From Yuukianura sp. NJ FZ-2021 (taxonomy: Eukaryota), in contig CM102287.1 of assembly GCA_046563655.1 (NCBI GenBank), positions 10,718,300 to 10,738,299 on the forward strand: DNA of 20,000 nt, given 5' to 3'. Shown piece after piece: positions 1 to 20,000 of the stretch (its first letter is position 1; each line of letters opens with the position of its first letter). A program made the translations under genes and the position numbers. A model generated the notes under the pieces. It did no database searches. It had not been told where the DNA came from and was given only the letters and a program-made list of their open reading frames with translations.

Positions 1-1647
1 CGGATGCAGCCACTGCCAACACGATCATCTACCTCAAAGACGTCAAATTCTGGGAACTCAAAATCCTCATTGAGTACTTGTACAACGGAGAGATTACAAT
101 CAGCGAAGAGAAGCTCAGACGTGTGTCTGCCATTGCGGAATCACTGCGCATCAAGGGATTTGCAGGGGAAGAGGGAATTATTGATGAAGACATTGCCAAG
201 GACCTTGGTCTGTCCAACGTCAGAACTCGACCAGCTCCAAATGCATCTCAAATTCTACCTCAACAACAACAACCAACAAAAGTTGGACTCAAACGTAAAG
301 CTGTCGTTTCGGCTCCGCCACGTCTCATCAAAATCCAGAAACCAATGAATGCTGCTGCCGTACTTTCTACCAAGTCACAAAGTCAAGGAAACTCCAATGG
401 AGACTGGAACAAGGTAAGAAACTTATAAACATCTTATTCCGGCAGCTTCAGTTTTTAATAGTTTTCTTTTTAGCCGAAACTGCCAACATCGGATGTGATT
501 GCTGAACGACTGCAGCAGAGCCAATTGTTGGAGCATCTCAGAGACGCTACTGCTGAGCCAGTCAGCATCAAAAAGGAGGAAGACCATGATCAGGAAATGG
601 TATTTCCAAAATTACAAACATATTATGCATTTTTATTGTGTATTTTGATGAATTTTGCGTTTTTGTTAGGGAGATGATGATGAAAACGAGCTAGAGATTG
701 CAGAGGTTGAGACTTCAGTGGGTGAAAGCGCAGTAACTTCTGATTCAGACTCTCAATCTGCAGATGAAGTGAGTGGAAAAGATGCTTCACAAGTTGAGGT
801 ACTGACTAAAATACTGCCAATATCATTTGTAAACTGCCAATACTTTATTCTCATTTGAAATTGTAGGTTGCCATTGGAGGTGGTTCGGGACAGCAGCGTA
901 AAGGCGTGTACAAGTACAGCCAGGAAGTTCGTGACAGCGTTTTGAGTTCTCTTCAAGGCGGAGCCTCCCTTCGGCAGTGTTCGGACTCATTCGGAATTCC
1001 TCGCAAAACAATCGCCAAATGGAAGCAACGAGAAGCAGAAGATTTGAGTAATGGAAATCCATACGAAATTCTTCCAGGTAAACATTCAGTTCCAATTTTA
1101 TTTTTAACTTCATTTTGTAATAATGAAAACAGTTAATGTGAATTTTAATGTCCAGATGTTTTCCAAGTATTTCGTTTCCTGTTTTTATGAAACTGTTTAC
1201 TCTGGAATTTTTGTGAATCAATTTAAATGTTAATTTGGATTGTGGAACTTCAGTATTTGATTTGTATTTGCAGTGGTTCCGAGTTTAGCCGAAGAGGAGT
1301 CGATTCGGAAGGGATCGGCGTCTGGATCGGGGAAGAGACGCCCTGGTGGAGTCAGTTTCGAATCGGGTGATCGAGCAGAGCGGCTGGAAGCGGCCATGAA
1401 GTTGGCTCTGTCCGGAACGACAGTTCGACAAGCAGCAGTTACTTATGAGATTCCCAGAACTACTCTCTGCGCCTACATGAAGCGTCGTGGGGTTCAAACG
1501 ACCTTGAAAAAGCCGCCTCCTGGCCCCCCTCCTCCCAACACTTCCGCTTCCGTAGAGGACTTTCCTTTGTTTGGTTTGTCTGATTTGATTGAAGATGTGG
1601 ATGGAGAGGGGGACTTTGCGGCAGAAGAGGAGGAGGAACTCTACTGA
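1..1647 (+). CDS. BTB/POZ (Ttk-type) + two pipsqueak-type HTH domain transcription factor, 5'-truncated. Exons <1-413, 474-599, 670-798, 867-1077, 1274-1647
   Basis: Frame from nt 3 reads TIIYLKDVKFWELKILIEYLYNGEITISEEKLRRVSAIAESLRIKGF, the C-terminal end of a Ttk/bab-type BTB domain. All four introns are GT..AG and keep phase. Psq-like motifs: YSQEVRDSVLSSLQGGASLRQCSDSFGIPRKTIAKW and RLEAAMKLALSGTTVRQAAVTYEIPRTTLCAY. Stop TGA at 1645-1647. Exact orthologue not assignable by eye. Confidence 0.9.
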
Positions 1648-5860: not shown

Positions 5861-6043
5861 TCTCAAAACACTTCAACTACTTCACACTAACCGAAAACTA
5901 GCCTAATCCAAACCTAAAGTCAGTTTCCTTTAAAGCAGCGAGGAATTTGAAACGGAAATCTACTTGGCCAACTTGGAAGTTCTCTTTGACCTACTTTGAC
6001 CTACAAGAGAGCAATCCGTCGACAGTTTAGTTTAAACACTGTC

Positions 6044-6334
6044 ATGGAGACGCTCTCTTTAAGGCAAAAGTTAGCAACCAGCGTTCCAGTCCAAGCATTC
6101 GGAATTCCAGAAGTGGAGACAAAGTGGTCATATTTTTCAGAAGATGCTGACGACGCTTGTAGCTCCATCTGGAACGGGTGAGTTTGAGACCAAGAGCAGA
6201 AAGTAATTAGTCAAATACTGCTAATTTGTGAGGAGAGTCATTCCATGATGAGTAATTTCCAATGCCACTTCTAATTGACGCTTGACACGCAGAGTCTCCT
6301 TTTCATCAGGACCACAAATGCTCAAAAAATGTAG
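6044..6334 (+). CDS. Candidate spliced 52-aa small ORF (exons 6044-6177, 6310-6334)
   Basis: gtcATGG start; perfect GTGAGT donor at 6178; CTAATTGAC branch point and TCTCCTTTTCATCAG acceptor ending 6309. Peptide METLSLRQKLATSVPVQAFGIPEVETKWSYFSEDADDACSSIWNGTTNAQKM*. AATAAA at 7302-7307 followed by T-rich sequence. No recognisable domain. Confidence 0.4.
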
Positions 6335-7154: not shown

Positions 7155-7798
7155 TTGAACATCCAACTTTTGTATTCTTCCTCTGCTGCGGAATGAGTTA
7201 TTCTTGGATAAAATTAACGGTAGTGGTAATTAGAATCCCGATTAATTAGCAAACTATAATTACAAAATGGATGAAATCAAATGTTAATTGTCAAAACTGT
7301 AAATAAACTTTTCAATTTTGATTTGTTTTTAATTTCAGTATAAATCTTTGGCGCTTTTTCTTTTGAAATTTTGAATAATTTTTAGTTCCCGCCACTCGAT
7401 GGTAATGTGTCTCAAACACAAATCAGAGTGAGAGTGACGCCATGCACAATCTGGCGCCAAATTCGTATTTGAATTCCACATGATAACGTACCAACGGTCA
7501 ACAAACGTCATGCGCAAATAAATGGAGAGAGGACGAGTCGACGAGAGGAGGTTAGAAAAGGAACAACGTTTAAGTAGTCCGTTAATTGTTAATTAGTTTA
7601 ATTCTCATTACTTCAATCAAAAGTGCCTATCGGACGATACTGTGTTGTGCTGAAACGTGAATTCCAGTTCCAGATCCAGTGTTTATTCGTCATTGGAGAG
7701 GTAATTGATTACATAACAATTGGTGAATTGTCGGTTGGGTTTTGGTATTTGAATGGGTGTGTGGTGTGCGTATGAGTGATTAATTTTAAGTCAGAAAG

Positions 7799-7807
7799 CC
7801 CATTGTG
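7799..7807 (+). repeat. Left target-site duplication CCCATTGTG
   Basis: Identical to 12000-12008. An alternative reading (7-bp TSD with GGGG/CCCC termini) fits Merlin less well. Confidence 0.88.
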
Positions 7808-8513
7808 GGGTGGATTGGACCAACTTGTAAGCAGTCGAAAATTTTCTAAGTTTTTTAGCCAAAATTTTCGAAAAAATTTTTTTTCGTTTTTTTCACATTT
7901 CATGACGTTTCAAACGTTTTTGGAACGTTTGGAGCAAAAAAAATTTTTTGACCCCAAGGGTCCCCCTTCCCTTTTTTTTTCAAAATTTTGACTCGGAAAT
8001 TTTCTAAGTACAGAACTCAAGTGGACACCTCTGACAACCTCAAAAATGACCCCTATGAAAGTTGTTCAGAATAACGAGGGGAGCATTTTTTGTTCTGTGA
8101 CATATGACCCTGTGACCTTCCGTTGAGGTCATAGGTCAACTTGAAAGTCAAACCCCTGACAACCCAAAAAATGACCTCTACAAAAGTTATTGGGCTTGAT
8201 GAGAGGAGCATTTTTTGTCCTGTGACATATGACCTTGTGACCTTCCGTTGAGGTCATAGGTCAACTTGAAAGTCAAACCCCTGACAACCCAAACAATGAC
8301 CTCTACAAAAGTTATTGGGCTTGATGAGAGGAGCATTTTTTGTCCTGTGACATATGACCTTGTGACCTTCCGTTGAGGTCATAGGTCAACTTGAAAGTCA
8401 AACCCCTGACAACCCAAAAAATGACCTCTACAAAAGTTATTGGGCTTGATGAGAGGAGCATTTTTTGTCCTGTGACATATGACCTTGCGACCTTCCGTTG
8501 AGGTCAAAGGTCA
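7808..8513 (+). repeat. Left TIR (~705 bp): ~220-bp unique terminus plus 125-bp tandem units (TGTGACATATG at 8096, 8221, 8346, 8471)
   Basis: Reverse complement of 11163-11999. The only difference I noticed in the terminal part is a 1-nt C-run indel (~7962 vs ~11841). Period exactly 125. Confidence 0.92.
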
Positions 8514-8529
8514 TCTTAGGTTAAGTTAG

Positions 8530-8792
8530 GTGAAAAATTATTTTTCCTAACTTTTCATGAAACGAAAAGTTAGTGTGGTCCCGTTGACCTCAGTGATCCC
8601 CGTGACCCCCAAAATGACCTCCAAAGGTAAAAAAAAAACATTTTTGTACTTTTGCATGAAAATGACTTTGGGAGTAGTCCTGATGATCTCAGTGACCCCC
8701 GTGACCTCAAAAATGACTTTTAAAGGTCAAAAAACTATTTTGCTACTTTTGAACGAGAAAAACTTTGGGAGTGATTGCGATGACCTCAATGA
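8530..8792 (+). repeat. Degenerate ~98-bp subterminal tandem repeat (~2.7 copies), left end only
   Basis: TGACCTCAGTGA 8585, TGATCTCAGTGA 8684, TGACCTCAATGA 8781; the shared TACTTTTG...ACTTTGGGAGT blocks recur. Confidence 0.7.
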
Positions 8793-8809
8793 TTTTCATA
8801 TTAAGTTAT

Positions 8810-8873
8810 ATAGGGTTTAGCCGGACATGCCGTTTCCAGATCACACCACGTGGAGGTACCCTATTTGTGATCC
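8810..8873 (-). ncRNA. HDV-like (nested double pseudoknot) self-cleaving ribozyme, 64 nt, short P4
   Basis: Minus strand: P1 GGAUCAC(8873-67)/GUGAUCU(8844-38) with G1-U wobble; J1/2 AA; P2 AUAGGGU(8864-58)/ACCCUAU(8816-10); P3 ACC/GGU; L3 UCCACGU; P1.1 CC/GG(8837-36); P4 CGG-CAUGU-CCG; J4/2 GCUAA with predicted catalytic C at 8820. Predicted cut between 8874 and 8873. Confidence 0.88.
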
Positions 8874-9018
8874 AAAAATGTTGTTGCGTACTCACCCTCA
8901 CCCCTTGTACGCCCCCGGCGGCCATTGTGAGGGCCCCTTTTACCAGTTTAAAGCAACGTTAAATTTATTAACACTGGTACGCCGGGTAGTTTTAAAACGG
9001 TTAGCTCATTAAAAACTA
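8874..9018 (-). ncRNA. Putative structured RNA (three-way junction + loop-loop pseudoknot) ending in UUUUU at the ribozyme cut site
   Basis: Helices CCCGGCG/CGCCGGG (8986-80/8920-14), UACCAGU/ACUGGUA (8979-73/8947-41), GUUAA/UUAAC, GCC/GGC around loop CUCACAAU, GCGUAC/GUACGC (8912-07/8891-86). CCCUCAC (8933-27) is complementary to GUGAGGG (8901-8895). GC-richer island in AT-rich surroundings. Family unknown to me. Confidence 0.55.
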
Positions 9019-9438
9019 ATCATGAAATCAATTATTATTCAAAACAAGTTCAATGCATTTTATTTCATTAACCATGTGAAATTGAGCACAAAAAATAAAT
9101 TCATTTGATTTTTTTAAAATCCATCTCAATTTTTTTTTTGATTTTTTTTTGTTATTTTTAATTTTTATAAACTTGCTTTAAAAAATTAAATATTTTTTTT
9201 TCTAATTTTCGTTAAATTTTTTGTAATTTTTTCTTCAGTTTTTTAAATACAATTTTCCTAATCCTTTTTAAATTAAAAAAGAATTTTTTTTTAATTGGAA
9301 TTGATTTTTGACTGCAAATTTCCAAAACAAAATTAATTGAAAAGCACGCTTTTTTTTCTGGGTCGCTTCCAGATGAAAAGCAAAAGCATACGGAATACTT
9401 CAGCTTTCATATAATTAATTGGCATAAAAGTTAAATAA

Positions 9439-10557
9439 TTATGGGACACAATCACGACAAGTACAATGTGGCGTTTTGATTCCTATTTCTCTTTTAGGGT
9501 CAACATCGTATCCTGGGTACATGCGTCGCAAGTCCCGAAGAAAGTGGAGTAACTTTCTGCCAAAGTCCCTTTTGTGGCTGGTATATAATTGGTTCAGGGT
9601 GTTTCTGCGATACAAAAACTCTCCTATGTAGTTAGGGACCATTTCAGCAGAACATTTTCGTAAGAAGTTGTACTTAAGGTCTTTCCACACACTTTCGATG
9701 TTGTTGGTGTGTACTTTAATTAAAGTAACTCTCCTGAATCGGCGAAAACCACGCATCCTTGGGTAGACCCAAAATCGAGCCACTCTGCCAAGTCTGGGGT
9801 AACGCCCTCTCACTACCCCTGGAACAGGGTTTACAAAATGCAGAGAGTGGTTAATTGCAAAATGGGTTCGGAATCCCAAGCGACGACACGTACGGTAGCT
9901 ACGAAGCTCATCGGTCATGATTATTGACCCCTGTGCGATATGCCTTTGCATAAAACGAAATAGTGTACCGCGTCTCTTGTTCTTAATTTGTACAACAAAT
10001 TTCTTTTTGGTTAGCCTGCTTACCCCTCCAAATACCCAAAGCGCTCGTTTTAACGCGCGTCCGCGATGATATTTTGGGGTAAACAGGTGGGACTCGTCGC
10101 ACTCCACAATGTCACCAGGCCCTCCAATTTGTTGCTCATCGTGGGCATGAGCAACTCGGCACACTTCTCGGCAAAATGAGTAAAAGTCCACGGCAGTTTT
10201 AAAGTCCACGTCGCATTGTCCCGCAGCTTGCCTCACTCCAATCTTAAAATACCAACACACAATCAAATTGAATGTTTTTAGAAATGGAAGTTTGACTTTC
10301 TCAAAAAATGTATCAATTAAAGGATTACACATTGGTTGTGCGCATGTCCTTTTCACACAGCTCCACCAGAACCCCAGTTTACAGTCAGGCCGCATTCGCT
10401 GTGTCATTTCAAAATAGCAAGTTGGGCAGGTGGGTGCAAAGTTGGGAATAAGTCCCAAATCATAGGCTGCCTCAATAGCAGTTTCTTCATTTTGCATAAA
10501 GTTTCCATAAGTAAAAATTGTAAAATGATCCGAATTCAATAAATTTTCAAAAGCCAT
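9439..10557 (-). CDS. Merlin/IS1595-family DDE transposase, ~372 aa, intact
   Basis: caaaATGg start at 10557. Zn-ribbon CPTC...CVKRTC; IGGPGDIVECDES (D1); KYHRGR...WVFGG; GSIIMTDELRSY (D2); INHS..FVNP; HTNNIESVW (E); YIGEFLYRR. No stops or frameshifts. Confidence 0.93.
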   Translation of the reverse strand: MAFENLLNSDHFTIFTYGNFMQNEETAIEAAYDLGLIPNFAPTCPTCYFEMTQRMRPDCKLGFWWSCVKRTCAQPMCNPLIDTFFEKVKLPFLKTFNLIVCWYFKIGVRQAAGQCDVDFKTAVDFYSFCREVCRVAHAHDEQQIGGPGDIVECDESHLFTPKYHRGRALKRALWVFGGVSRLTKKKFVVQIKNKRRGTLFRFMQRHIAQGSIIMTDELRSYRTCRRLGFRTHFAINHSLHFVNPVPGVVRGRYPRLGRVARFWVYPRMRGFRRFRRVTLIKVHTNNIESVWKDLKYNFLRKCSAEMVPNYIGEFLYRRNTLNQLYTSHKRDFGRKLLHFLRDLRRMYPGYDVDPKREIGIKTPHCTCRDCVP

Positions 10558-10814
10558 TTTGCTACGCCAATCGAGCACGTAGTTTAATTTTAAACTTTTA
10601 AAAAATTCAAGATTTAGTACCAATTATTAATTTGTAACAAACAAAGAAAGAGAAAAATTATAATATTAATATTGGTACTAATACTTTTAGTTTTTGTATA
10701 GCGCAGGTAGGAAAGGAAAGAAACACCAAACGGATTTTGCACGGGATGCACCCCATCCGCAGAGGTGGACTGTTCACCAACATCATTATGGCCGTTGCAG
10801 TCTCTCGGCATTTA

Positions 10815-10869
10815 CTGAATTATAATTATAATTTGAACTGTTACAGTTCAAATTATAATTATAATTCAG
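10815..10869. repeat. Perfect 55-bp AT-rich palindrome (27-bp arms, 1-nt centre)
   Basis: CTGAATTATAATTATAATTTGAACTGT-T-ACAGTTCAAATTATAATTATAATTCAG. Confidence 0.95.
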
Positions 10870-11162
10870 ATTTAGCACGTCTTGGGATCTGAGGCGCCAG
10901 TTTCCTCAGATCCGGACGATTTTGGCCACCTTATACAGCAAAGCTGTATAAGGCGATGTTAGCCCCGTAATTCAGGTGGCGAGTCTGAACCTTGGTGTTT
11001 CAATCCTTTTCAAAAAAAAATGAGCAGCGCTTCCCTCCCATGTAAGCATTTTTAAGTTTCGGACCAGAACCCTAGGCACGCTCAGACTTAGGCCATTTCG
11101 GATTAACCGAGCGGGTCTGGTCCCCTCCCTTCGGAGTATGTGAGATTTTGCGATTTGAAGTA

Positions 11163-11999
11163 CAAGTTGACCTATGACCTCAACGAAAGGTCACAAGGTC
11201 ATATATCACAGGAGAAAAAATGCTCCTCTCATCAAGCCCAATAACTTTTGTAGAGGTCATTTTTTGGGTTGTCAGGGGTTTGACTTTCAAGTTGACCTAT
11301 GACCTCAACGGAAGGTCGCAAGGTCATATGTCACAGGACAAAAAATGCTCCTCTCATCAAGCCCAATAACTTTTGTAGAGGTCATTTTTTGGGTTGTCAG
11401 GGGTTTGACTTTCAAGTTGACCTATGACCTCAACGGAAGGTCACAAGGTCATATGTCACAGGACAAAAAATGCTCCTCTCATCAAGCCCAATAACTTTTG
11501 TAGAGGTCATTTTTTTGGTTGTCGGGGGTTTGACTTTCAAGTTGACCTATGACCTCAACGGAAGGTCACAGGGTCATATGTCACAGGACAAAAAGTGATC
11601 CTCTCATCGAGCCCAACAACTTTTGTAGAGGTCATTTTTTTGGTTGTCAGGGGTTTGACTTTCAAGTTGACCTATGACCTCAACGGAAGGTCACAGGGTC
11701 ATATGTCACAGAACAAAAAATGCTCCCCTCGTTATTCTGAACAACTTTCATAGGGGTCATTTTTGAGGTTGTCAGAGGTGTCCACTTGAGTTCTGTACTT
11801 AGAAAATTTCCGAGTCAAAATTTTGAAAAAAAAAGGGAAGGGGGGACCCTTGGGGTCAAAAAATTTTTTTTGCTCCAAACGTTCCAAAAACGTTTGAAAC
11901 GTCATGAAATGTGAAAAAAACGAAAAAAAATTTTTTCGAAAATTTTGGCTAAAAAACTTAGAAAATTTTCGACTGCTTACAAGTTGGTCCAATCCACCC
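11163..11999 (-). repeat. Right TIR (~837 bp) with five 125-bp units (CAAGTTGACC at 11163, 11288, 11413, 11538, 11663)
   Basis: Inverted copy of the left TIR with one additional repeat unit. Confidence 0.92.
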
Positions 12000-13474
12000 C
12001 CCATTGTGTGATGCCACGGCGCATTGGTTTTCTGCTAGAGTACTCGTTGATGGAAGTGGCTGGACGTCGAGGAGACAGCGGAGGACCCAGGAAGCCCTTC
12101 ATGCTGAGGACTGGACGCAGGGCCAAGGGCCCACTCACTTCGTCTGGACAGAAAGTGGGGAAGTGCATGGCTGGAGTGGGGGGTCTTGGGTGACTCTTGT
12201 CTCTGGTAGTTGACCCACCAATGGATTTCCCCACAGTTGTCAGTGAGCGTAAGTCTTCTTGACTTGCATGTCGTTTAGGATCTGCACAGTAAGGAACCAG
12301 TTTACGACGGATTCGGGTTGAACGATTTCGAGTGTCATCGGCTGAGGAAGAAGACAGTGGACGATGTTCTCCGAGAGTCGTCAGTTGATGTCTGGCTAGC
12401 ACTGCTGACAAGATTCCGTTGCTTTTTCCATCTAGAAATTAATCAAGTGAAAATTTAATTTCCAAGAGTTTGTCTAATTAATCATACGTGTTGCTTCCAA
12501 CAGGAGCTGTTCCTTGAGTCCGGAATAAATCGCAGGATGTCGTTCGATTGCCGCTTCCAGAGTGTTGACTAATCCCAGGATTTCCTTCTCCAAAATGGCC
12601 GACTTCTCAGTTTCGTTTTCCGACGTTGGAGCTGCTGACGATGTAGCGGAAAGTCTCGACTGGAAAAATCAAGTTGCAACTGAAGGTAATTATTCAATTG
12701 ATCTTTTAATGTTAAGATTTCAATTACTCCTAGGATTTCTGTGCGATGAGCAGAGTTGATTTGATTGATGAGATTCCGTATCAATTTCTCCTGAGATCCA
12801 ATGACTGCCTTCAACAAATGTTCTTGTCCTTGCAGTTTTCTGGCTGGACAGTGTTGACGGGCTCTTGCATCACGACCTTTCAATTCCAGGAAAGTTTGAC
12901 CTCGACATCTGAGCATCAAAAAGGTAAGACAAGAATCCTTATTTTTAGTATTTAAGTTGTTCGTCACTGAAACAGTGAAAGTGACCTGTTGAGGTCAATG
13001 AGTTCTCCACGACAGTCAGTTATGCTTTCGTAACCACGAGCGTTGAGAGTGTAAAGCACATCTCGGATGAAGTCTTTCATCTCTCCATGTTCATCTCTCA
13101 GATTTTTGAGCTGTTCGTCTAACATAGTCGACATTCGCTTGGCTGCTGCGAGTTGCTCGTCAATTCGCTCGGTACCTTGGCCTTGTTCGGTTCTAGTTTT
13201 AGCCAAGAACGTTTGTGGACTTTTGCCTGAGTCCTCGCCATTGACTTGGACCTACATTGTGGCCAAAGGTCACAAGTCAAGAGGTCACAAAAGCCGTTTT
13301 TTTTTTAAAATAGTTTACCTTTTCTGAGAGTCGTTTCGTTTTAGTCTTTTTGGTTGTTGGTCTGGAGGACGCGATTTTGCCTCCTTGTGCCTGAATTTGT
13401 CGGAGTGACATTGGTGGCAACTCAATTTCAGTGTCTCCATGATCCACCTCCGTCAGGGTGGGATTTGTCGTCAT
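11977..13474 (-). CDS. Uncharacterised ~409-aa protein with predicted coiled-coil segments; C-terminus altered by the Merlin insertion. Exons 13474-13319, 13251-12986, 12908-12728, 12659-12488, 12431-11977
   Basis: Five exons join in phase through short GT-AG introns (1230 nt). Heptad-like stretch ERIDEQLAAAKRMSTMLDEQLKNLRDEHGEMKDFIRDVL. The exon 2 donor could instead be the GTGACG site ~12967 (same phase). Removing the transposon restores ...RRGITQWAF* with TGA at 7793-7791. Confidence 0.75.
12000..12008 (+). repeat. Right target-site duplication CCCATTGTG
   Basis: Identical to 7799-7807. Confidence 0.88.
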
Positions 13475-14081
13475 TTTATATTACGTAAAAAAGCTCTTGT
13501 TCTCAATCCGGAAATTAATCAGTGCCGCATTTTACAAAATCAGACAGTGTCAGCAGCATAGCAGCATCTTTTTACAGTTCCGGATGCAATGCCGCTTAAT
13601 TTTGTTTGTTTTAGCGCCATTAGTAGTTTTCGTCATGGCGAATTAGTTTTCTAATTGAAAGAAATCAAGCGCTCTTTTACAATTTTTGGGAAGAGCGATT
13701 TGGGCCGAGGTTATCGAAATTTTGTGTGTTTTTCTTTACGGCATTTGTATAAATGAGCATCATATTAACCTTGGATATGGGGGGTTATTTGCTGATTAAT
13801 GTTAGGAATTTTTCCACATTAGGAATGAGCAAAATACGGGCTGTTCCTAATGTAGAAAATCCTGGTGTTCAATTTCTAATGCAAGGATGTTCTTTAAACA
13901 ATGTTCTTTTAAACAACTTTTCTCTAGAAAAACCTTTTCTTTTAATTGTAAATTAATTTTCAAACGTTGTTTTTTGAATTTTTAGTATGGGATTTAAACG
14001 TTTCTTTAAAAAAAACTTTTCTATATAAAAACTTTTTTTTTTAATTTTAAATTACTAATAACTTTCAATAAATTATTTTAA

Positions 14082-14482
14082 CATTCAGAGACAAATTTTT
14101 TAAAAAGTATATTATTCTCTGTTAAGGCATAAATACGCATTCAGAGACAAATTTTTTAAAAAGTTTATTATTCTCTGTTAAGGCATAAATACGCATTCAG
14201 ATACAAATTTTTTAAAAAGTTTATTATTCTCTGTTAAGGCATAAATACGCATTCAGAGAAAAATTTTTTAAAAAGTTTATTATTCTCTGTTAAGGCATAA
14301 ATACGCATTCAGAGAAAATTTTTTTAAAAAGTTTATTATTCTCTGTTAAGGCATAAATACGCATTCAGAGAAAATTTTTTTAAAAAGTTTATTATTCTCT
14401 GTTAAGGCATAAATACGCATTCAGAGACAAATTTTTTAAAAAGTTTATTATTCTCTGTTAAGGCATAAATACGCATTCAGAG
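14082..14482 (+). repeat. 56-bp minisatellite, 7 copies + 9 nt
   Basis: Unit CATTCAGAGACAAATTTTTTAAAAAGTTTATTATTCTCTGTTAAGGCATAAATACG starting at 14082, 14138, 14194, 14250, 14306, 14362, 14418, with a partial copy at 14474. Few substitutions; ends exactly at the LTR boundary. Confidence 0.95.
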
Positions 14483-15067
14483 TGTAGTTGATCGCGGCCA
14501 TAAGATGTGCAGAATTCAAGTGAGAATGGATTTGAAATGATGTGAAAGATGAAGAGACCAATCCAGTAATGTCAAATAAACCAATTACTTTAATTTAATA
14601 CTTATTAATGAAAAAGAAACAATTAATTGAAAGTTGAGATACTCAAAGATTGAATTCAGAGAAGATTCTTGTAGTGAATTGAATTGTGTATTCTTATACT
14701 ATGTACTATGGTTGAAGACGTGGAGCTGACGTGGAAGTAAAGGCGGAGCAAGTAATACGCATGACTGAGCTCCTGCTCTTTCCACTTCTTAATACTAAAC
14801 TTAAATACTATAGGAGAAGTGTTGACTTGAGAGAGAGAGAGTGTTGAGTTTTGGGAAGAGCGTTAACATACATTGAAATTGAGAGTGGACTTAACGCTAT
14901 CTTCTCACTTAACCCTTTACTTTCCCACTATGGGTGAACTGTTAGCTCTCTTCTAGTGCTGAGTGATGCTCATCTCATCTCAGTCACTTTAGGTTTAATT
15001 CTATTTCTAGTTCTAAAGTTTAGGTGAAATTTAAAGTGAAAATAATTCTGACGCTAACGCCAGAACA
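14483..15067 (-). repeat. 3' LTR (~585 bp), TGTTCTGGCG...CAACTACA
   Basis: TGT...ACA termini, immediately downstream of the PPT, with a sharp junction to the minisatellite. The 5' LTR is not in the window, so the boundaries are inferred. Confidence 0.75.
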
Positions 15068-15479: not shown

Positions 15480-18400
15480 TTACGGATCTGGAGATAGAAG
15501 TGGACAGATTTTGACGATTGGTCGTTTGAATGTATGTAGTTTTGGCTTCTTGGTCTTCTCATCGAATGTAGTGTACTTCACTTCAACAGTGCGGACAAGA
15601 TCATCGTTTCCTGGGAATACTGCAGTGACTCTGGCCATCTTCCATTTGAGTGGTGGATGATTGTCATCTTTCAGCAGCACTAATTCTCCGATTTTGACAT
15701 TTTCAGTAGGTGAATTCCACTTCCTCCGTTCTTGAAGAGTATGAACGTACTCAGTACTCCATTTCTTCCAAAAGTGTTCCAAGATGAACTGGACATGCTG
15801 CCACCGAGACAAACGATTCTCCTTGAGGTGGAGTAGACTTGGTTCCGGTATGGCAGTGAGAGGACGACCGATTAGGAAATGACCAGGAGTGAGTACTTGA
15901 AAATCATCCGGATCATCTGACATGGCATAGAGTGGTCTGGAGTTGAGAACTGATTCGATCATGGCTAGGATGGTGTAGAACTCTTCCAGTGTCAGACATT
16001 GAGTTCCCACGGTACGTTTAAGATGAAACTTGGTAGATTTGACACAAGCTTCCCAGAGTCCACCCATGTGTGGAGCGTTTGGTGGGTTCAGCCTCCACTC
16101 TATCCCTTGGTTGCCTAAAAAATCGCTAATTTCATCATTAGACTTTTCCAATAGACTAACCCATTCCGACATTTCGTTTTTGGCTCCGACGAAGTTACTT
16201 CCACAGTCGGAGTAGATTGCAGTCGGTAATCCTCGTCGTGCTACGAACCGCTTCAAAGTGCCAATGAAAGTCTCAGTGTCGAGGCCCGTTACCGGTTCAA
16301 TGTGAACCGCTTTGGTACTAAAACAAATGAAAACACAAAAGTACACATCAAATTGTTTTTTACCTCTACCCTTGGTTTCTGATGCTTTCATTGGTCCTCC
16401 AAAGTCAAGTCCAGTGTGACTAAATGGTGGTGATGGGGTTACTCGTGGTTTTGGTAGATTTCCCATCAGCTGACTGTAAGTTTTGGCACGGAGCCTTTTG
16501 CACTTTATGCATTGATGGAGCTGCTGACGAACAGTGACACGGGCTCGAATGATCCAAAATTGCTGTCGTAGGCTACTCCACAGTAGTTGATAACTGGCGT
16601 GATGCAGTTTGATGTGGTAATTCCAAATGATCAGTTTGGTCAAATGGTGATTTCCAAACAGAATCATCTGGTGCTTCTTCTCCTCTGGTTCTTGTGAGTT
16701 TTTGAGTCTTCCACCGACTCTTAGGATACCGTCCTTGTCCAAAAATGGGCTGAGATAGGATAATTGACTGCGATTGGATAATTCTCTTCCGACTTTCAGT
16801 TTCTTGATCTCCTTGTCGTAACACTCTCGTTGAGCCTCCCGGATGGAGATTATGAATCCATGGTGGATTTCAGTAGCTGAAAGTGGTCCAGTTAAACGAT
16901 TTCCGGTTTTTGAATTCCTACAATTGCTAATAAATCGTAAGACATACGCCATGGCTCTTTTAAGCCGAATGACATTAGAAAACCTTTCAAACATGGATGA
17001 ATTGATTAAACCCAAATTGACCATTACTTTTTCACCTTTTAATTCCAAGTCAGGCTCACTTACTTCCCCCGACTCAAAATTAGGTAATTTTACTGACTCA
17101 CATAGAAATGACGGTCCTTTGAACCAGAGATTTGAGTTGATTAGTTCCTCTGCTGGAATTCCTCGTGTCCCAAGATCAGCAGGGTTGATTTTACCAGGAA
17201 TGAATCTCCATGACTCAGCAGGAAGTACATCCTGAATTTCTGAAATTCGATTGGCGACGAATGTTTTGAACTTACGAGACCGGTTTCGTAGCCAATGTAG
17301 AACAATTTCACTGTCGCTCCAGCAAGTGATGGGACATTGTATTTTCAGAGCTTCAGTGACTTGAGTCATCAATCGTGTCAGGAGAAGGGCTCCACAGAGT
17401 TCCAACCGAGGAATTGAGATTTGTTTGATTGGAGCTACCTTCGTCTTGGCAGCGATGATGTTTGTGTAGATTTCGTTTCCACGAATCGAGCGGGCGTAGA
17501 CAACTGCACAGTAAGCAGATTCGGATCCATCCGAGAATCCGTGGAGCTCCACGAACTCAGCAGTGCCTAAAAACAGGAACCTGGGGATTCTAACATTCTC
17601 AATTAGTTTTACCCCTTGTTCAAAGTCGATCCATGGTTGAAGTAAGGCTCGAGGTATCTCTTGGTCCCACGTTAGGATGTGACTCTTTCCATCGGTTTCA
17701 ACTGGTGTCCAAAGTTTCTGGAAGTAGAGTTTAATTGACACAGTGAACGGAGATAACATACCGAGTGGGTCGAAGACACGGCTCATGGACGAAAGCACAG
17801 AGCGTTTAGTAGCTTTTTCTTCGGCTACTGGTGTGTATCCAGAAAAATGAAAGACGTCATCGGTTGAATTCCAACAAACACCTAAAGCTCGGACATGATT
17901 AGAATCGGATTTTACATTAGGATTTTTACCCCGTAGATTTTCTGGAATGAAGTTGAGTAATTCTGAGTCGTTTGAGTCCCACTGCCGGATTTCAATACTG
18001 GATGATTCCAGTAACTTGGAGAGCTCATTGTAGATTTGAACTCCCTCGGCCGTAGACTTTGCATTTCCAAGGAGATCATCAACGTAGAATCTTTCCCTAA
18101 GGACCTCCGCCCCCTTTGGAAATGCCTGAGAATTGGAATTAGCAATTTCATTCAAACACCTTACCGCAAGGAATGGCGCTGAACTAGTGCCGTAAGTGAC
18201 CGTTTTGAGACGGTACTCTTTGACTGGTTCTGACTCTGACGTTCTCCAGAAAATCCTTTGATAGTCCTGATGAGATTTTGAAATTCCAAACTGACGGTAC
18301 ATCTTTGTAATGTCCGCCTTAAGCGCAATCGGGTCTGACCTAAAATTGATTAAGTGCGCAAAAATGTCTTTTTGCACCGTTGGACCTACCAATTGACATT

Positions 18401-20000
18401 CGTTGAACGTAATTCCGGTTGTTGTCTTTGCTGAGCCATCGAAGACAACACGAAGTTTGGTAGTACTGGAAGTCTCCTTCAGTACAAAGTGATGAGGAAG
18501 ATAATTAGTTTTCCCAATTTTCTCACCACACTCGGAGTCAGGAATTGGTTCCATGTGACCCAGTTCTTCGTATTGCTCCATGAAGCGATGGTACTCGGGT
18601 TTCAGATCCGGAAATTGCTTTAGTCGCTTCTCGAGATTATAGAATCTCCGTAATGCCATGGTTCTAGACCCACCTAAAATTTCAATCTTGGGATTAAATG
18701 GAAAACTTACTTGGAGTCTACCATCTTCTCCTTTAGTGTGAGTCTGAACAAAATGTGTTTCAGCATCATCTTCGTCTTTGGTGAGGTGAGGACGATTTGG
18801 TACATCCTCAATTTCCCAAAACTTTGGAATTGGATCCTCGGTTACAATTTGGATGTGATGAGATGAGACAGACCTAGAAGGACAGTTAATTGGACCAGAT
18901 ACAACCCACCCGAATTTTGTTTCCTCAGCAATTGGTTGAGTAGGCGGTCCTTCCGATCTCTTCCCCGTTTTAAGGTAAGCGACAAACTCAGCACCCATCA
19001 GAATGTCAATGTCTCCTGGCTCCAGAAAATGGGGGTCAGCTAATCGCAGATTTGTGATGTGACTCCATTCCATTTTCTCACATTTGAATGAAGGAATTGT
19101 ACCTGTAATCTTGTTAAGCACCAAAGCATTGACATTTACATGAAAATTAGTTACCCGAGAATTGACAATGAAATTTACCTCACCAAGTGCTTTACCGACA
19201 CTTGCACCTGACACTCCAGTAATTGAAACATTTGACTTAGTTTTGATTAAACCAAGTCGTTTGACACAATCATTTGTGATCATACTTGATTCAGAGCCCT
19301 GGTCAAGCAGAACACGACATTGAACCAACTCACCATCAGAGTCCATGACGTCAACCACTGCCGTAGAGAGTAGGACTCTAGCAGACGATGATTGAAGTGA
19401 ATTGGTTGTTGACCCTTGAGATGAAGTTGATGGAGCAGTAGATTTGTTGTCATCTGATTTTTCAAAATGAAGCGTGGTGTGGTGACGGCCCTTACATTTT
19501 AGGCACCGGAACTTTCCCTTGCAGTCCTTGCCCCAATGACCTGATTTTAAACAGTTTATGCACAATGACTTACTTCCCACGAATTTTGAACGTTCCTCCG
19601 TTGACAATTTCAGATAATCCCCACATTTGTAGAGACCATGATCTGTGGACTGGCACATTGGGCATTTTCGCAGAGGTTGAGTTGGTCTGGAAGATTCGAT
19701 AGGCAATGATGACACCGATTGATTTGATTCCGATACGGTAGGCTTGGATGCCACGTTTGCCTTCTTCTCTGCTGGTTTTCCACCCTCTGAATTTGATTTG
19801 GTTGTAGTGGTGGTAGACGCAAGCAGACCTCTAACGTAATCTTCCAAAAATTCCATGACTTCTGCCAATTTTGGTACATTGGTCCCCTTGAGAGACTTTG
19901 CCCAGTCCCTTTTGCATTCTGGAGGGAGACGTTCCACTAAGTGGAAAACTAAAATCGAATCCCAAGAATTCACAGGCTCCTTTAGATTTGATAAGGATCT
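15480..20000 (-). CDS. BEL/Pao Gag-Pol polyprotein, >1500 aa, 5'-truncated by the window, intact
   Basis: Three Zn knuckles (CPMCQSTDHGLYKC, CINCLKSGHWGKDC, CLKCKGRHHTTLH); protease LLDQGSE; RT KLRVVFDGS...DITKMYRQ...YVDD; RNase H FSDGS...WSDS...NPAD; integrase HIKLHH...CIKC, GLDFGGP, YSDCGSNF, GGLWEACVK; C-terminal FWKKWSTEY...W domain. Frame open to nt 20000. Confidence 0.97.
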   Translation of the reverse strand, partial: RSLSNLKEPVNSWDSILVFHLVERLPPECKRDWAKSLKGTNVPKLAEVMEFLEDYVRGLLASTTTTTKSNSEGGKPAEKKANVASKPTVSESNQSVSSLPIESSRPTQPLRKCPMCQSTDHGLYKCGDYLKLSTEERSKFVGSKSLCINCLKSGHWGKDCKGKFRCLKCKGRHHTTLHFEKSDDNKSTAPSTSSQGSTTNSLQSSSARVLLSTAVVDVMDSDGELVQCRVLLDQGSESSMITNDCVKRLGLIKTKSNVSITGVSGASVGKALGEVNFIVNSRVTNFHVNVNALVLNKITGTIPSFKCEKMEWSHITNLRLADPHFLEPGDIDILMGAEFVAYLKTGKRSEGPPTQPIAEETKFGWVVSGPINCPSRSVSSHHIQIVTEDPIPKFWEIEDVPNRPHLTKDEDDAETHFVQTHTKGEDGRLQVSFPFNPKIEILGGSRTMALRRFYNLEKRLKQFPDLKPEYHRFMEQYEELGHMEPIPDSECGEKIGKTNYLPHHFVLKETSSTTKLRVVFDGSAKTTTGITFNECQLVGPTVQKDIFAHLINFRSDPIALKADITKMYRQFGISKSHQDYQRIFWRTSESEPVKEYRLKTVTYGTSSAPFLAVRCLNEIANSNSQAFPKGAEVLRERFYVDDLLGNAKSTAEGVQIYNELSKLLESSSIEIRQWDSNDSELLNFIPENLRGKNPNVKSDSNHVRALGVCWNSTDDVFHFSGYTPVAEEKATKRSVLSSMSRVFDPLGMLSPFTVSIKLYFQKLWTPVETDGKSHILTWDQEIPRALLQPWIDFEQGVKLIENVRIPRFLFLGTAEFVELHGFSDGSESAYCAVVYARSIRGNEIYTNIIAAKTKVAPIKQISIPRLELCGALLLTRLMTQVTEALKIQCPITCWSDSEIVLHWLRNRSRKFKTFVANRISEIQDVLPAESWRFIPGKINPADLGTRGIPAEELINSNLWFKGPSFLCESVKLPNFESGEVSEPDLELKGEKVMVNLGLINSSMFERFSNVIRLKRAMAYVLRFISNCRNSKTGNRLTGPLSATEIHHGFIISIREAQRECYDKEIKKLKVGRELSNRSQLSYLSPFLDKDGILRVGGRLKNSQEPEEKKHQMILFGNHHLTKLIIWNYHIKLHHASYQLLWSSLRQQFWIIRARVTVRQQLHQCIKCKRLRAKTYSQLMGNLPKPRVTPSPPFSHTGLDFGGPMKASETKGRGKKQFDVYFCVFICFSTKAVHIEPVTGLDTETFIGTLKRFVARRGLPTAIYSDCGSNFVGAKNEMSEWVSLLEKSNDEISDFLGNQGIEWRLNPPNAPHMGGLWEACVKSTKFHLKRTVGTQCLTLEEFYTILAMIESVLNSRPLYAMSDDPDDFQVLTPGHFLIGRPLTAIPEPSLLHLKENRLSRWQHVQFILEHFWKKWSTEYVHTLQERRKWNSPTENVKIGELVLLKDDNHPPLKWKMARVTAVFPGNDDLVRTVEVKYTTFDEKTKKPKLHTFKRPIVKICPLLSPDP

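Follow-up and report, generated by a model that had tools for sequence, protein, structure and literature searches.

A predicted hepatitis delta virus-like ribozyme between the transposase gene and an end repeat of an intact Merlin DNA transposon

The stretch of DNA analysed here (the window) comprises 20,000 nucleotides of the assembly of Yuukianura sp. NJ FZ-2021 (GCA_046563655.1, contig CM102287.1, positions 10,718,300 to 10,738,299 of the forward strand). Positions 7808-11999 of the window are occupied by a complete and intact Merlin/IS1595 DNA transposon of 4192 bp, in which a transposase gene is enclosed by long terminal inverted repeats (TIRs). A predicted self-cleaving ribozyme of the hepatitis delta virus (HDV) type begins 565 nt past the stop codon of the transposase open reading frame (ORF), on the same strand, and is followed downstream by subterminal repeats and the TIR (Table 1).

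Table 1. Positions in the window of the Merlin element, its target duplication and its internal features (strand + or - where assigned; TIR, terminal inverted repeat; UTR, untranslated region).
Feature	Position	Strand	Remarks
Target-site duplication, left copy	7799-7807		9 bp, CCCATTGTG; direct repeat D18; empty-site contigs
Left TIR	7808-8517		about 710 bp, begins GGG; 125-bp tandem units from 8027; repeats D2, I1 and I7
Three diverged direct repeats of ~98 nt	8533-8792		families D3 and D4, 66-75% identity; self-BLAST 76%
HDV-like ribozyme, predicted self-cleaving	8810-8873	-	64 nt; predicted cut U8874/G8873; candidate catalytic C8820
GC-rich island directly upstream of the predicted cut	8874-9018	-	CCATTGTG at 8922-8929 (+); AATAAA at 8969
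AT-rich 3' UTR	9019-9438	-	poly(A) hexamers ATTAAA at 9295 and 9162, AATAAA at 9064
Merlin transposase ORF	9439-10557	-	372 aa plus stop; DDE_Tnp_IS1595
Arg-rich stretch, codons R261-R275	9733-9777	-	12 residues beyond relatives; alignment A1
Hairpin array	10815-11123	-	10815-10869, 10885-10913, 10927-10955 and 11061-11123; palindrome I12
Right TIR with one additional 125-bp unit	11154-11999 (TIR proper 11289-11999)		extra unit on the inner side
Target-site duplication, right copy	12000-12008		9 bp, CCCATTGTG; repeat search and empty-site contigs

The transposase matched PF12762 with 53.2 bits (E 4.5e-14; cut-off 27). A word-based protein search gave 17 relatives out of 792 candidates, at 31-58% identity and including one labelled springtail protein (P0012), and an exhaustive search recovered 5178 library relatives at E<=0.001; the closest protein relative (P0001, 58% identity) comes from a 6.8-kb contig. 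D154 and D216 are invariant in the 16 aligned sequences, and E288, inside the HTNxxE block, is retained in most rows; we take these three residues to be the catalytic DDE triad. The AlphaFold2 (AF2) model of the protein reached a predicted local distance difference test score (pLDDT) of 82 and a predicted template modelling score (pTM) of 0.81. In the available part of the published description (PMC8101967), the Merlin superfamily is defined by inverted ends that start with GG, a target duplication of 8-9 bp, a DDE_Tnp_IS1595 domain and a single ORF, and its inverted ends measure 24-462 bp. The window element is alike in its domain, its 5'-GG TIRs, its 9-bp duplication and its one ORF, and has the conserved D/D/E residues; it is unlike Merlin as defined there in that its ends measure about 710 bp and hold 125-bp tandem units, and it additionally carries a ribozyme and a hairpin array.

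The insertion was followed in the reads of three DNA runs (X1-X3) of a single sample. Empty-site contigs from runs X1-X3 fuse position 7798 to position 12000, with 9 letters in common; the empty-site allele is thus still present in the sample, which marks the insertion as polymorphic and recent. The two TIR arms are 98.3% identical across 711 nt (left arm against the reverse complement of 11289-11999), both ends of the element begin GGGTGGATTGG, and the terminal 25-mer is restricted to these two ends within the 20 kb. An intact Merlin/IS1595 element had been proposed in an earlier, sequence-only reading of this DNA, and the domain match, the TIRs, the 9-bp duplication and the empty-site contigs bear it out. 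Read depth is 10,000-30,000-fold over the TIRs and about 150-300 over the interior of the element, from which it follows that the ends belong also to a large family of short derivatives and that the autonomous interior is low-copy. Transposase copies at 80-96% identity are present in the reads of the same sample. In many contigs the two arms are joined and most of the interior is gone, which indicates that short, non-autonomous derivatives make up a large family, and in three of these derivatives the arms are separated by CCTAA-rich fillers of 17-27 nt. TTAGG-like repeats are found at the inner edge of the left TIR (8516-8530); TTAGG is the telomere unit of arthropods.

Read on the minus strand from 8873 to 8810, the putative ribozyme satisfies on paper the nested double pseudoknot of the HDV class, and every helix is perfect. 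P1 is formed by GGAUCAC and GUGAUCU (7 bp), its first pair being a G.U wobble (G8873-U8838) at the predicted cut site; P2 is formed by AUAGGGU and ACCCUAU, with AA as J1/2, and P3 by ACC and GGU (3 bp), with UCCACGU as L3. A two-pair P1.1 is possible between positions 2-3 of L3 (CC) and the GG of J1/4 that comes after P1. P4 is short (3 bp) and J4/2 reads CUAA, so that the candidate catalytic C8820 lies within GCUAA. Both the C in J4/2, as the catalytic base, and the G.U wobble pair next to the cut are established features of HDV-like ribozymes. The direct repeats of ~98 nt separate the ribozyme from the left TIR. Five consecutive U residues (8874-8878, minus strand) immediately precede the predicted cut and could be read as an RNA polymerase III stop; by eye, no polymerase III promoter boxes were seen.

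In an E-value scan of 1 kb, the best Rfam match was HDV-F-prausnitzii (RF02682; 26 bits, cut-off 44, E 0.018), and drz-agam-1 (RF01787) came fourth by score (17.8 bits, cut-off 37); the HDV-type models concerned are each from narrow lineages. Two search patterns were also used. The loose descriptor, in which the canonical core letters are not required, has a chance rate per shuffled 20 kb of 0.125 with a P2 of at least 5 bp and of 0.03 with a P2 of at least 7 bp, and in the window it matched, besides the ribozyme site, two places (14254 and 14310) in an AT-rich satellite. The canonical descriptor makes G1, an L3 of the form UYCNCGN, GG, C[U/G]AA and perfect helices obligatory. It was run on 49 sequences, that is, the window and 48 related loci (loci among the matches listed; the DNA of P0001-P0010 is outside this set), and gave 2 matches in the real 180 kb against 0 in 300 shuffles of the 49 sequences (54 Mb). 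The claim of an HDV-like ribozyme made in the sequence-only reading, which had already named C8820, is upheld by the presence of all core features and the lack of canonical matches in the shuffles; to judge from its sequence, we find it convincing that a low-copy autonomous Merlin carries a genuine HDV-like ribozyme fold.

The sole other match to the canonical descriptor among the 49 sequences lies in L001, a metagenome contig of 1549 bp that encodes a transposase (P0014) with 44% identity to that of the window. In L001, positions 157-274 matched the Rfam CPEB3_ribozyme model with 20.7 bits (E 0.071 in 7 kb, 0.003 in 300 nt), and a minimal HDV-like ribozyme can be read from the sequence at 168-223 (+), on the strand of the ORF. 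Its P1 is GGGUACC/GGUACCU, J1/2 is AC, P2 is GAGAGCG/CGCUCUC, P3 is GCG/CGC and L3 is UCCUCGU; P1 is followed by GG, a 5-nt stand-in for P4 and GCUAAC. The predicted ribozyme starts 11 nt inside unit 3 of a tandem array of 75-nt repeats, 5' of the ORF, and the order along positions 1-445 is 75-nt repeats, ribozyme, two long hairpins (about 228-347; z score -6.0) and ORF, with the ATG at ~442. L3, GG and GCUAA are kept between the two ribozymes. All 16 pairs counted (of 17; one P2 pair was dropped, the 3' end of L001 being misplaced in the MAFFT alignment A2) are standard in both and 10 are changed on both sides, a count that overstates independent covariation, since both ribozymes had passed the perfect-helix filter. 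What the two elements share is a predicted cut between the coding part and a terminal or subterminal repeat block, and this second case, in a Merlin with a 44%-identical transposase, suggests that the association of ribozyme and Merlin is not accidental.

The reading that we favour, and hold tentatively, is that the ribozyme cleaves transcripts of the transposase strand between the ORF and the end repeat. Transcripts running past the poly(A) sites would be cut at the predicted site, and the coding RNA would be detached from the transcribed end repeat; one molecule would then no longer hold both inverted ends, which could otherwise form a double-stranded RNA of ~700 bp, and a trigger of silencing would be avoided. 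The ribozyme may also assist transcription stop ahead of the end repeat. All four poly(A) hexamers (Table 1) lie upstream of the predicted cut, which makes conventional 3'-end formation before the ribozyme plausible, in which case the ribozyme would act on read-through transcripts. The production of the RNA, its cleavage and the purpose of the cleavage are what we infer. Cutting is favoured because it alone fits a ribozyme 3' of the ORF, as in the window, as well as one 5' of the ORF, as in L001; a role in 3'-end formation or termination suits the window, not L001. A self-cleaving cassette that keeps TIR RNA off the mRNA had been the conservative alternative of the sequence-only reading, and it is this alternative that comes out ahead.

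Several observations weigh against such a role. At its gathering score, Rfam did not report the ribozyme in the window, and it found no family on any of the 48 related loci. The motif occurs in 2 elements only among the 49 sequences: it was not found in L002, a decayed copy (searched over 2768 nt before and 239 nt after the match), in the intron-containing L036 (289 nt before the match and ~350 nt past the stop codon), or, by descriptor match, in 44 more distant Merlin loci and L048, the one marginal match from the genome-contig collection. Among the read records listed there was no diverged copy of 8541-9020, and the ribozyme module may be private to one copy. The ribozymes of the window and L001 stand on opposite sides of the ORF, so that a single function for both is something we infer, and the cut RNAs could pair in trans. 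The evidence amounts to two sequences and is to be taken as a lead rather than a result. Elsewhere in the set, looser descriptors gave AT-rich or non-canonical matches only. A covariance model built from a single sequence (R1) was tried as a detector and rejected, as it matched the window only and missed L001. No related loci were found in viral contigs.

Among the alternatives, all of which we consider unlikely, the one that survives best is that the ribozyme and its neighbours (about 9018-8518) are a captured or nested piece, such as the head of a retrotransposon without long terminal repeats (non-LTR) or of a short interspersed nuclear element (SINE), with no function for the Merlin. The published HDV-like ribozymes of mobile DNA, as described in the available part of PMC6765202, are retrotransposon heads; 8518-9018 has no similarity to any related locus, and no diverged copy of it appears among the records listed, although diverged copies of the transposase exist. 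However, the ribozyme is followed neither by a reverse transcriptase (RT) ORF nor by a poly(A)-type tail; instead of the downstream RT ORF and dispersed repeat that mark a retrotransposon head, only the ~98-nt repeats and the end repeat were found. The idea is disfavoured, moreover, by read depth over 8541-9020, which resembles that of single-copy DNA and not that of a repeat family (in run X1, 168-277 in bins 8678-8985, with 137-200 for exact contigs and 157 for the flank), the low copy number of the ribozyme region ruling out a high-copy head of a SINE or of a long interspersed nuclear element (LINE), and by the occurrence of a second ribozyme, unrelated in sequence, in another Merlin at the same type of boundary.

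By analogy with R2 and L1Tc, the ribozyme might instead make a 5' end, freeing a downstream RNA from a co-transcript and perhaps aiding cap-independent translation. In the window, that RNA would consist of the ribozyme, the ~98-nt repeats and the end repeat; in L001, of the ribozyme, the hairpins and the ORF. HDV-like ribozymes remain on the downstream product, according to the available part of PMC6765202, and in L001 the parts follow one another just as in R2 (upstream sequence, ribozyme, structured leader, ORF). The downstream product in the window, however, would have no ORF, just repeats and the end repeat, and the window and L001 would demand two different functions, so that we regard this explanation as distinctly less probable than a captured piece. 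A shade more doubtful still is an inactive look-alike, a fold that exists on paper only, does not cleave and owes its position to accident. Its score under the Rfam gathering threshold agrees with this, as do the satellite matches at 14254 and 14310, which show that loose descriptors can mislead; yet the canonical core letters are all present although the loose descriptor does not demand them, the shuffles gave no canonical match, and L001 supplies a second case.

The sequence-only reading had gone further, proposing a structured RNA of 145 nt upstream of the cut to which the transposase would bind. A GC-rich island is indeed present (49-54% GC at about 8874-9000 against 11-23% in the neighbouring 3' UTR), but its stability is ordinary, the z score of the fold of 9018->8874 being -0.88 (34 of 200 shuffles were at least as stable), and -0.41 with the ribozyme added to the 145-nt segment. 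Nor was conservation seen: in a comparison of 8518-9438, the 145-nt segment had no nucleotide similarity to any of the 48 related loci, and Rfam gave no family on it except a snoRNA-model match (E 7.9) overlapping 8999-9018. A tRNA upstream of the ribozyme, by analogy with the theta ribozymes, was not detected. An 8-nt identity had also been claimed between a hairpin of this RNA and the target duplication. CCATTGTG is present in the island, but the duplication is of 9 bp, of which 8 are matched and the ninth differs; among random genomic 9-mers, an 8-mer recurs within 145 nt in 0.9% of cases and within the 2.6-kb unique interior in 21%. As the region was chosen post hoc and the insertion is a single one, the match is weak evidence.

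The Arg-rich insert of the transposase fared in a similar way. Its 12 extra residues, in R261-R275, are real, being absent in 15 of 15 aligned relatives, and the insert (7 R in 18 residues) is ungapped in two copies of 95-96% identity in the read records of the same sample; but it occupies a loop of hypervariable length and is not tied to the ribozyme. Flanked by the NHS and HTNxxE blocks, the loop measures 11-47 aa across 132 rows (that of the window plus those proteins of 230-700 aa which extend over both flanks; the shorter, longer and partial ones of 164 were dropped), with 46 aa in the window and 44-47 in nine others, and in the AF2 model the insert forms the tip of a beta-hairpin, at low confidence, a placement that has no bearing on RNA binding. 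P0014 has no Arg-rich insert though L001 has a ribozyme, which shows that insert and ribozyme are not linked, and the suggested co-occurrence of insert, RNA and ribozyme fails in L001, which has neither the insert nor the 145-nt RNA. An origin of the insert by tandem duplication was not supported (15 of 36 bases shared).

A cis-encoded RNA trimmed by the ribozyme (9018->8874) and bound through the insert, for targeting by way of a CACAAUGG hairpin or for regulation, is thus very improbable: the 8-nt match does exist, at 0.9% chance if the 145 nt alone are considered, and the insert is Arg-rich and retained in near-identical copies, but the RNA is neither unusually stable nor conserved and has an AATAAA within it, the match is 8 of 9 and within chance over the interior, the insert loop varies in length in the family, and in L001 tandem repeats take the place of the 145-nt RNA. 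We give equally little credence to RNA-assisted targeting or self-regulation via the Arg-rich beta-hairpin more broadly conceived, whether the RNA were the GC-rich segment that stops at U8874 or the ribozyme-headed end-repeat RNA that begins with G8873.

The hairpins that the sequence-only reading placed upstream of the ORF were confirmed, with a z score of -7.4 for the fold of 10700-11160 (minus strand). The first three members of the array (Table 1) have stems of 26, 10 and 13 bp and the fourth is a compound stem; the array is paralleled by the hairpin leader of L001. In an Rfam E-value scan of 10500-11200, only weak microRNA-like matches, to the palindrome, were obtained, and no ribozyme. 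The segment 10815-10869 is a perfect 55-nt palindrome, and at 10819 and 10869 contigs from run X3 pass from it into different sequence; the palindrome may therefore recur elsewhere in the genome.

The closest known parallels are the ribozymes of R2, RTE, Baggins and L1Tc, which, like that of the window, are small double pseudoknots of the HDV type in a mobile element and are expected to cut the RNA of the element from a longer transcript. Unlike these retroelements, the window element is a class II cut-and-paste element with a DDE transposase and no reverse transcriptase, and whereas the heads of non-LTR elements are 5' ends, its ribozyme is found past the 3' end of the ORF, looking towards the end repeat. 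Kienbeck et al. reportedly described minimal HDV-like and "theta" ribozymes in phages in 2024; these resemble the window ribozyme in that P4 is short or absent and in that the ribozyme abuts an upstream RNA, of which it would set the 3' end, and they differ in that the window ribozyme is hosted by a eukaryotic transposon with no recognisable tRNA or other RNA upstream. The bridge RNA of IS110 and the omega RNA of TnpB, IscB and Fanzor are non-coding RNAs at the end of an element, beside the gene of the enzyme. With these the window has in common only the idea of an end-encoded non-coding RNA adjoining an enzyme gene: the enzyme family is different, no conserved RNA and no co-variation of RNA and protein were found, and guide-target pairing comes down to the single 8-nt match, at one insertion. 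Across the 48 loci, L001 among them, no conserved structured RNA co-occurred with the enzyme, as an RNA-guided system would have it.

A 2019 review (PMC6765202) treats HDV-like ribozymes of mobile elements solely under retrotransposons, and neither "transposase" nor "DNA transposon" occurs in the part of it that was available. In full-text searches of the openly accessible main texts, no report came up that connects HDV-like ribozymes to DNA transposons, to Merlin or to transposases, and an HDV-like ribozyme within a cut-and-paste DNA transposon seems to be an unreported setting. In the sources available, self-cleaving ribozymes of mobile DNA are known from retroelements, whose transposition intermediate is RNA. 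If the two ribozymes were active, a DNA transposon would be shaping its own transcripts by RNA self-cleavage, the likely purpose being an mRNA free of the long inverted ends, and hence of the hairpin that would trigger silencing; this would offer a testable answer to how elements with very long inverted ends express their transposase, and would widen the known uses of HDV-like ribozymes. Were the RNA-assisted reading true, the element would have the first RNA-assisted DDE cut-and-paste transposase in eukaryotes.

Outside the element, the window contains a microRNA precursor of the mir-46/mir-47/mir-281 family (5991-6072, plus strand; 65.2 bits, cut-off 44.7), which is its sole Rfam match at gathering score and indicates an invertebrate genome. 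Upstream of it, two open frames (3-428 and 1261-1647, both plus strand) look by eye like host-gene exons of the BTB and helix-turn-helix types. On the far side of the transposon, a 56-nt AT-rich repeat is arrayed in tandem at 14026-14538 (about 9 units, with a core identity of 96-98%) and was the source of the false matches of the loose descriptor, and a 1506-aa open frame on the minus strand, 15480-20000, runs off the end of the window and resembles, by eye, a retroelement polyprotein.

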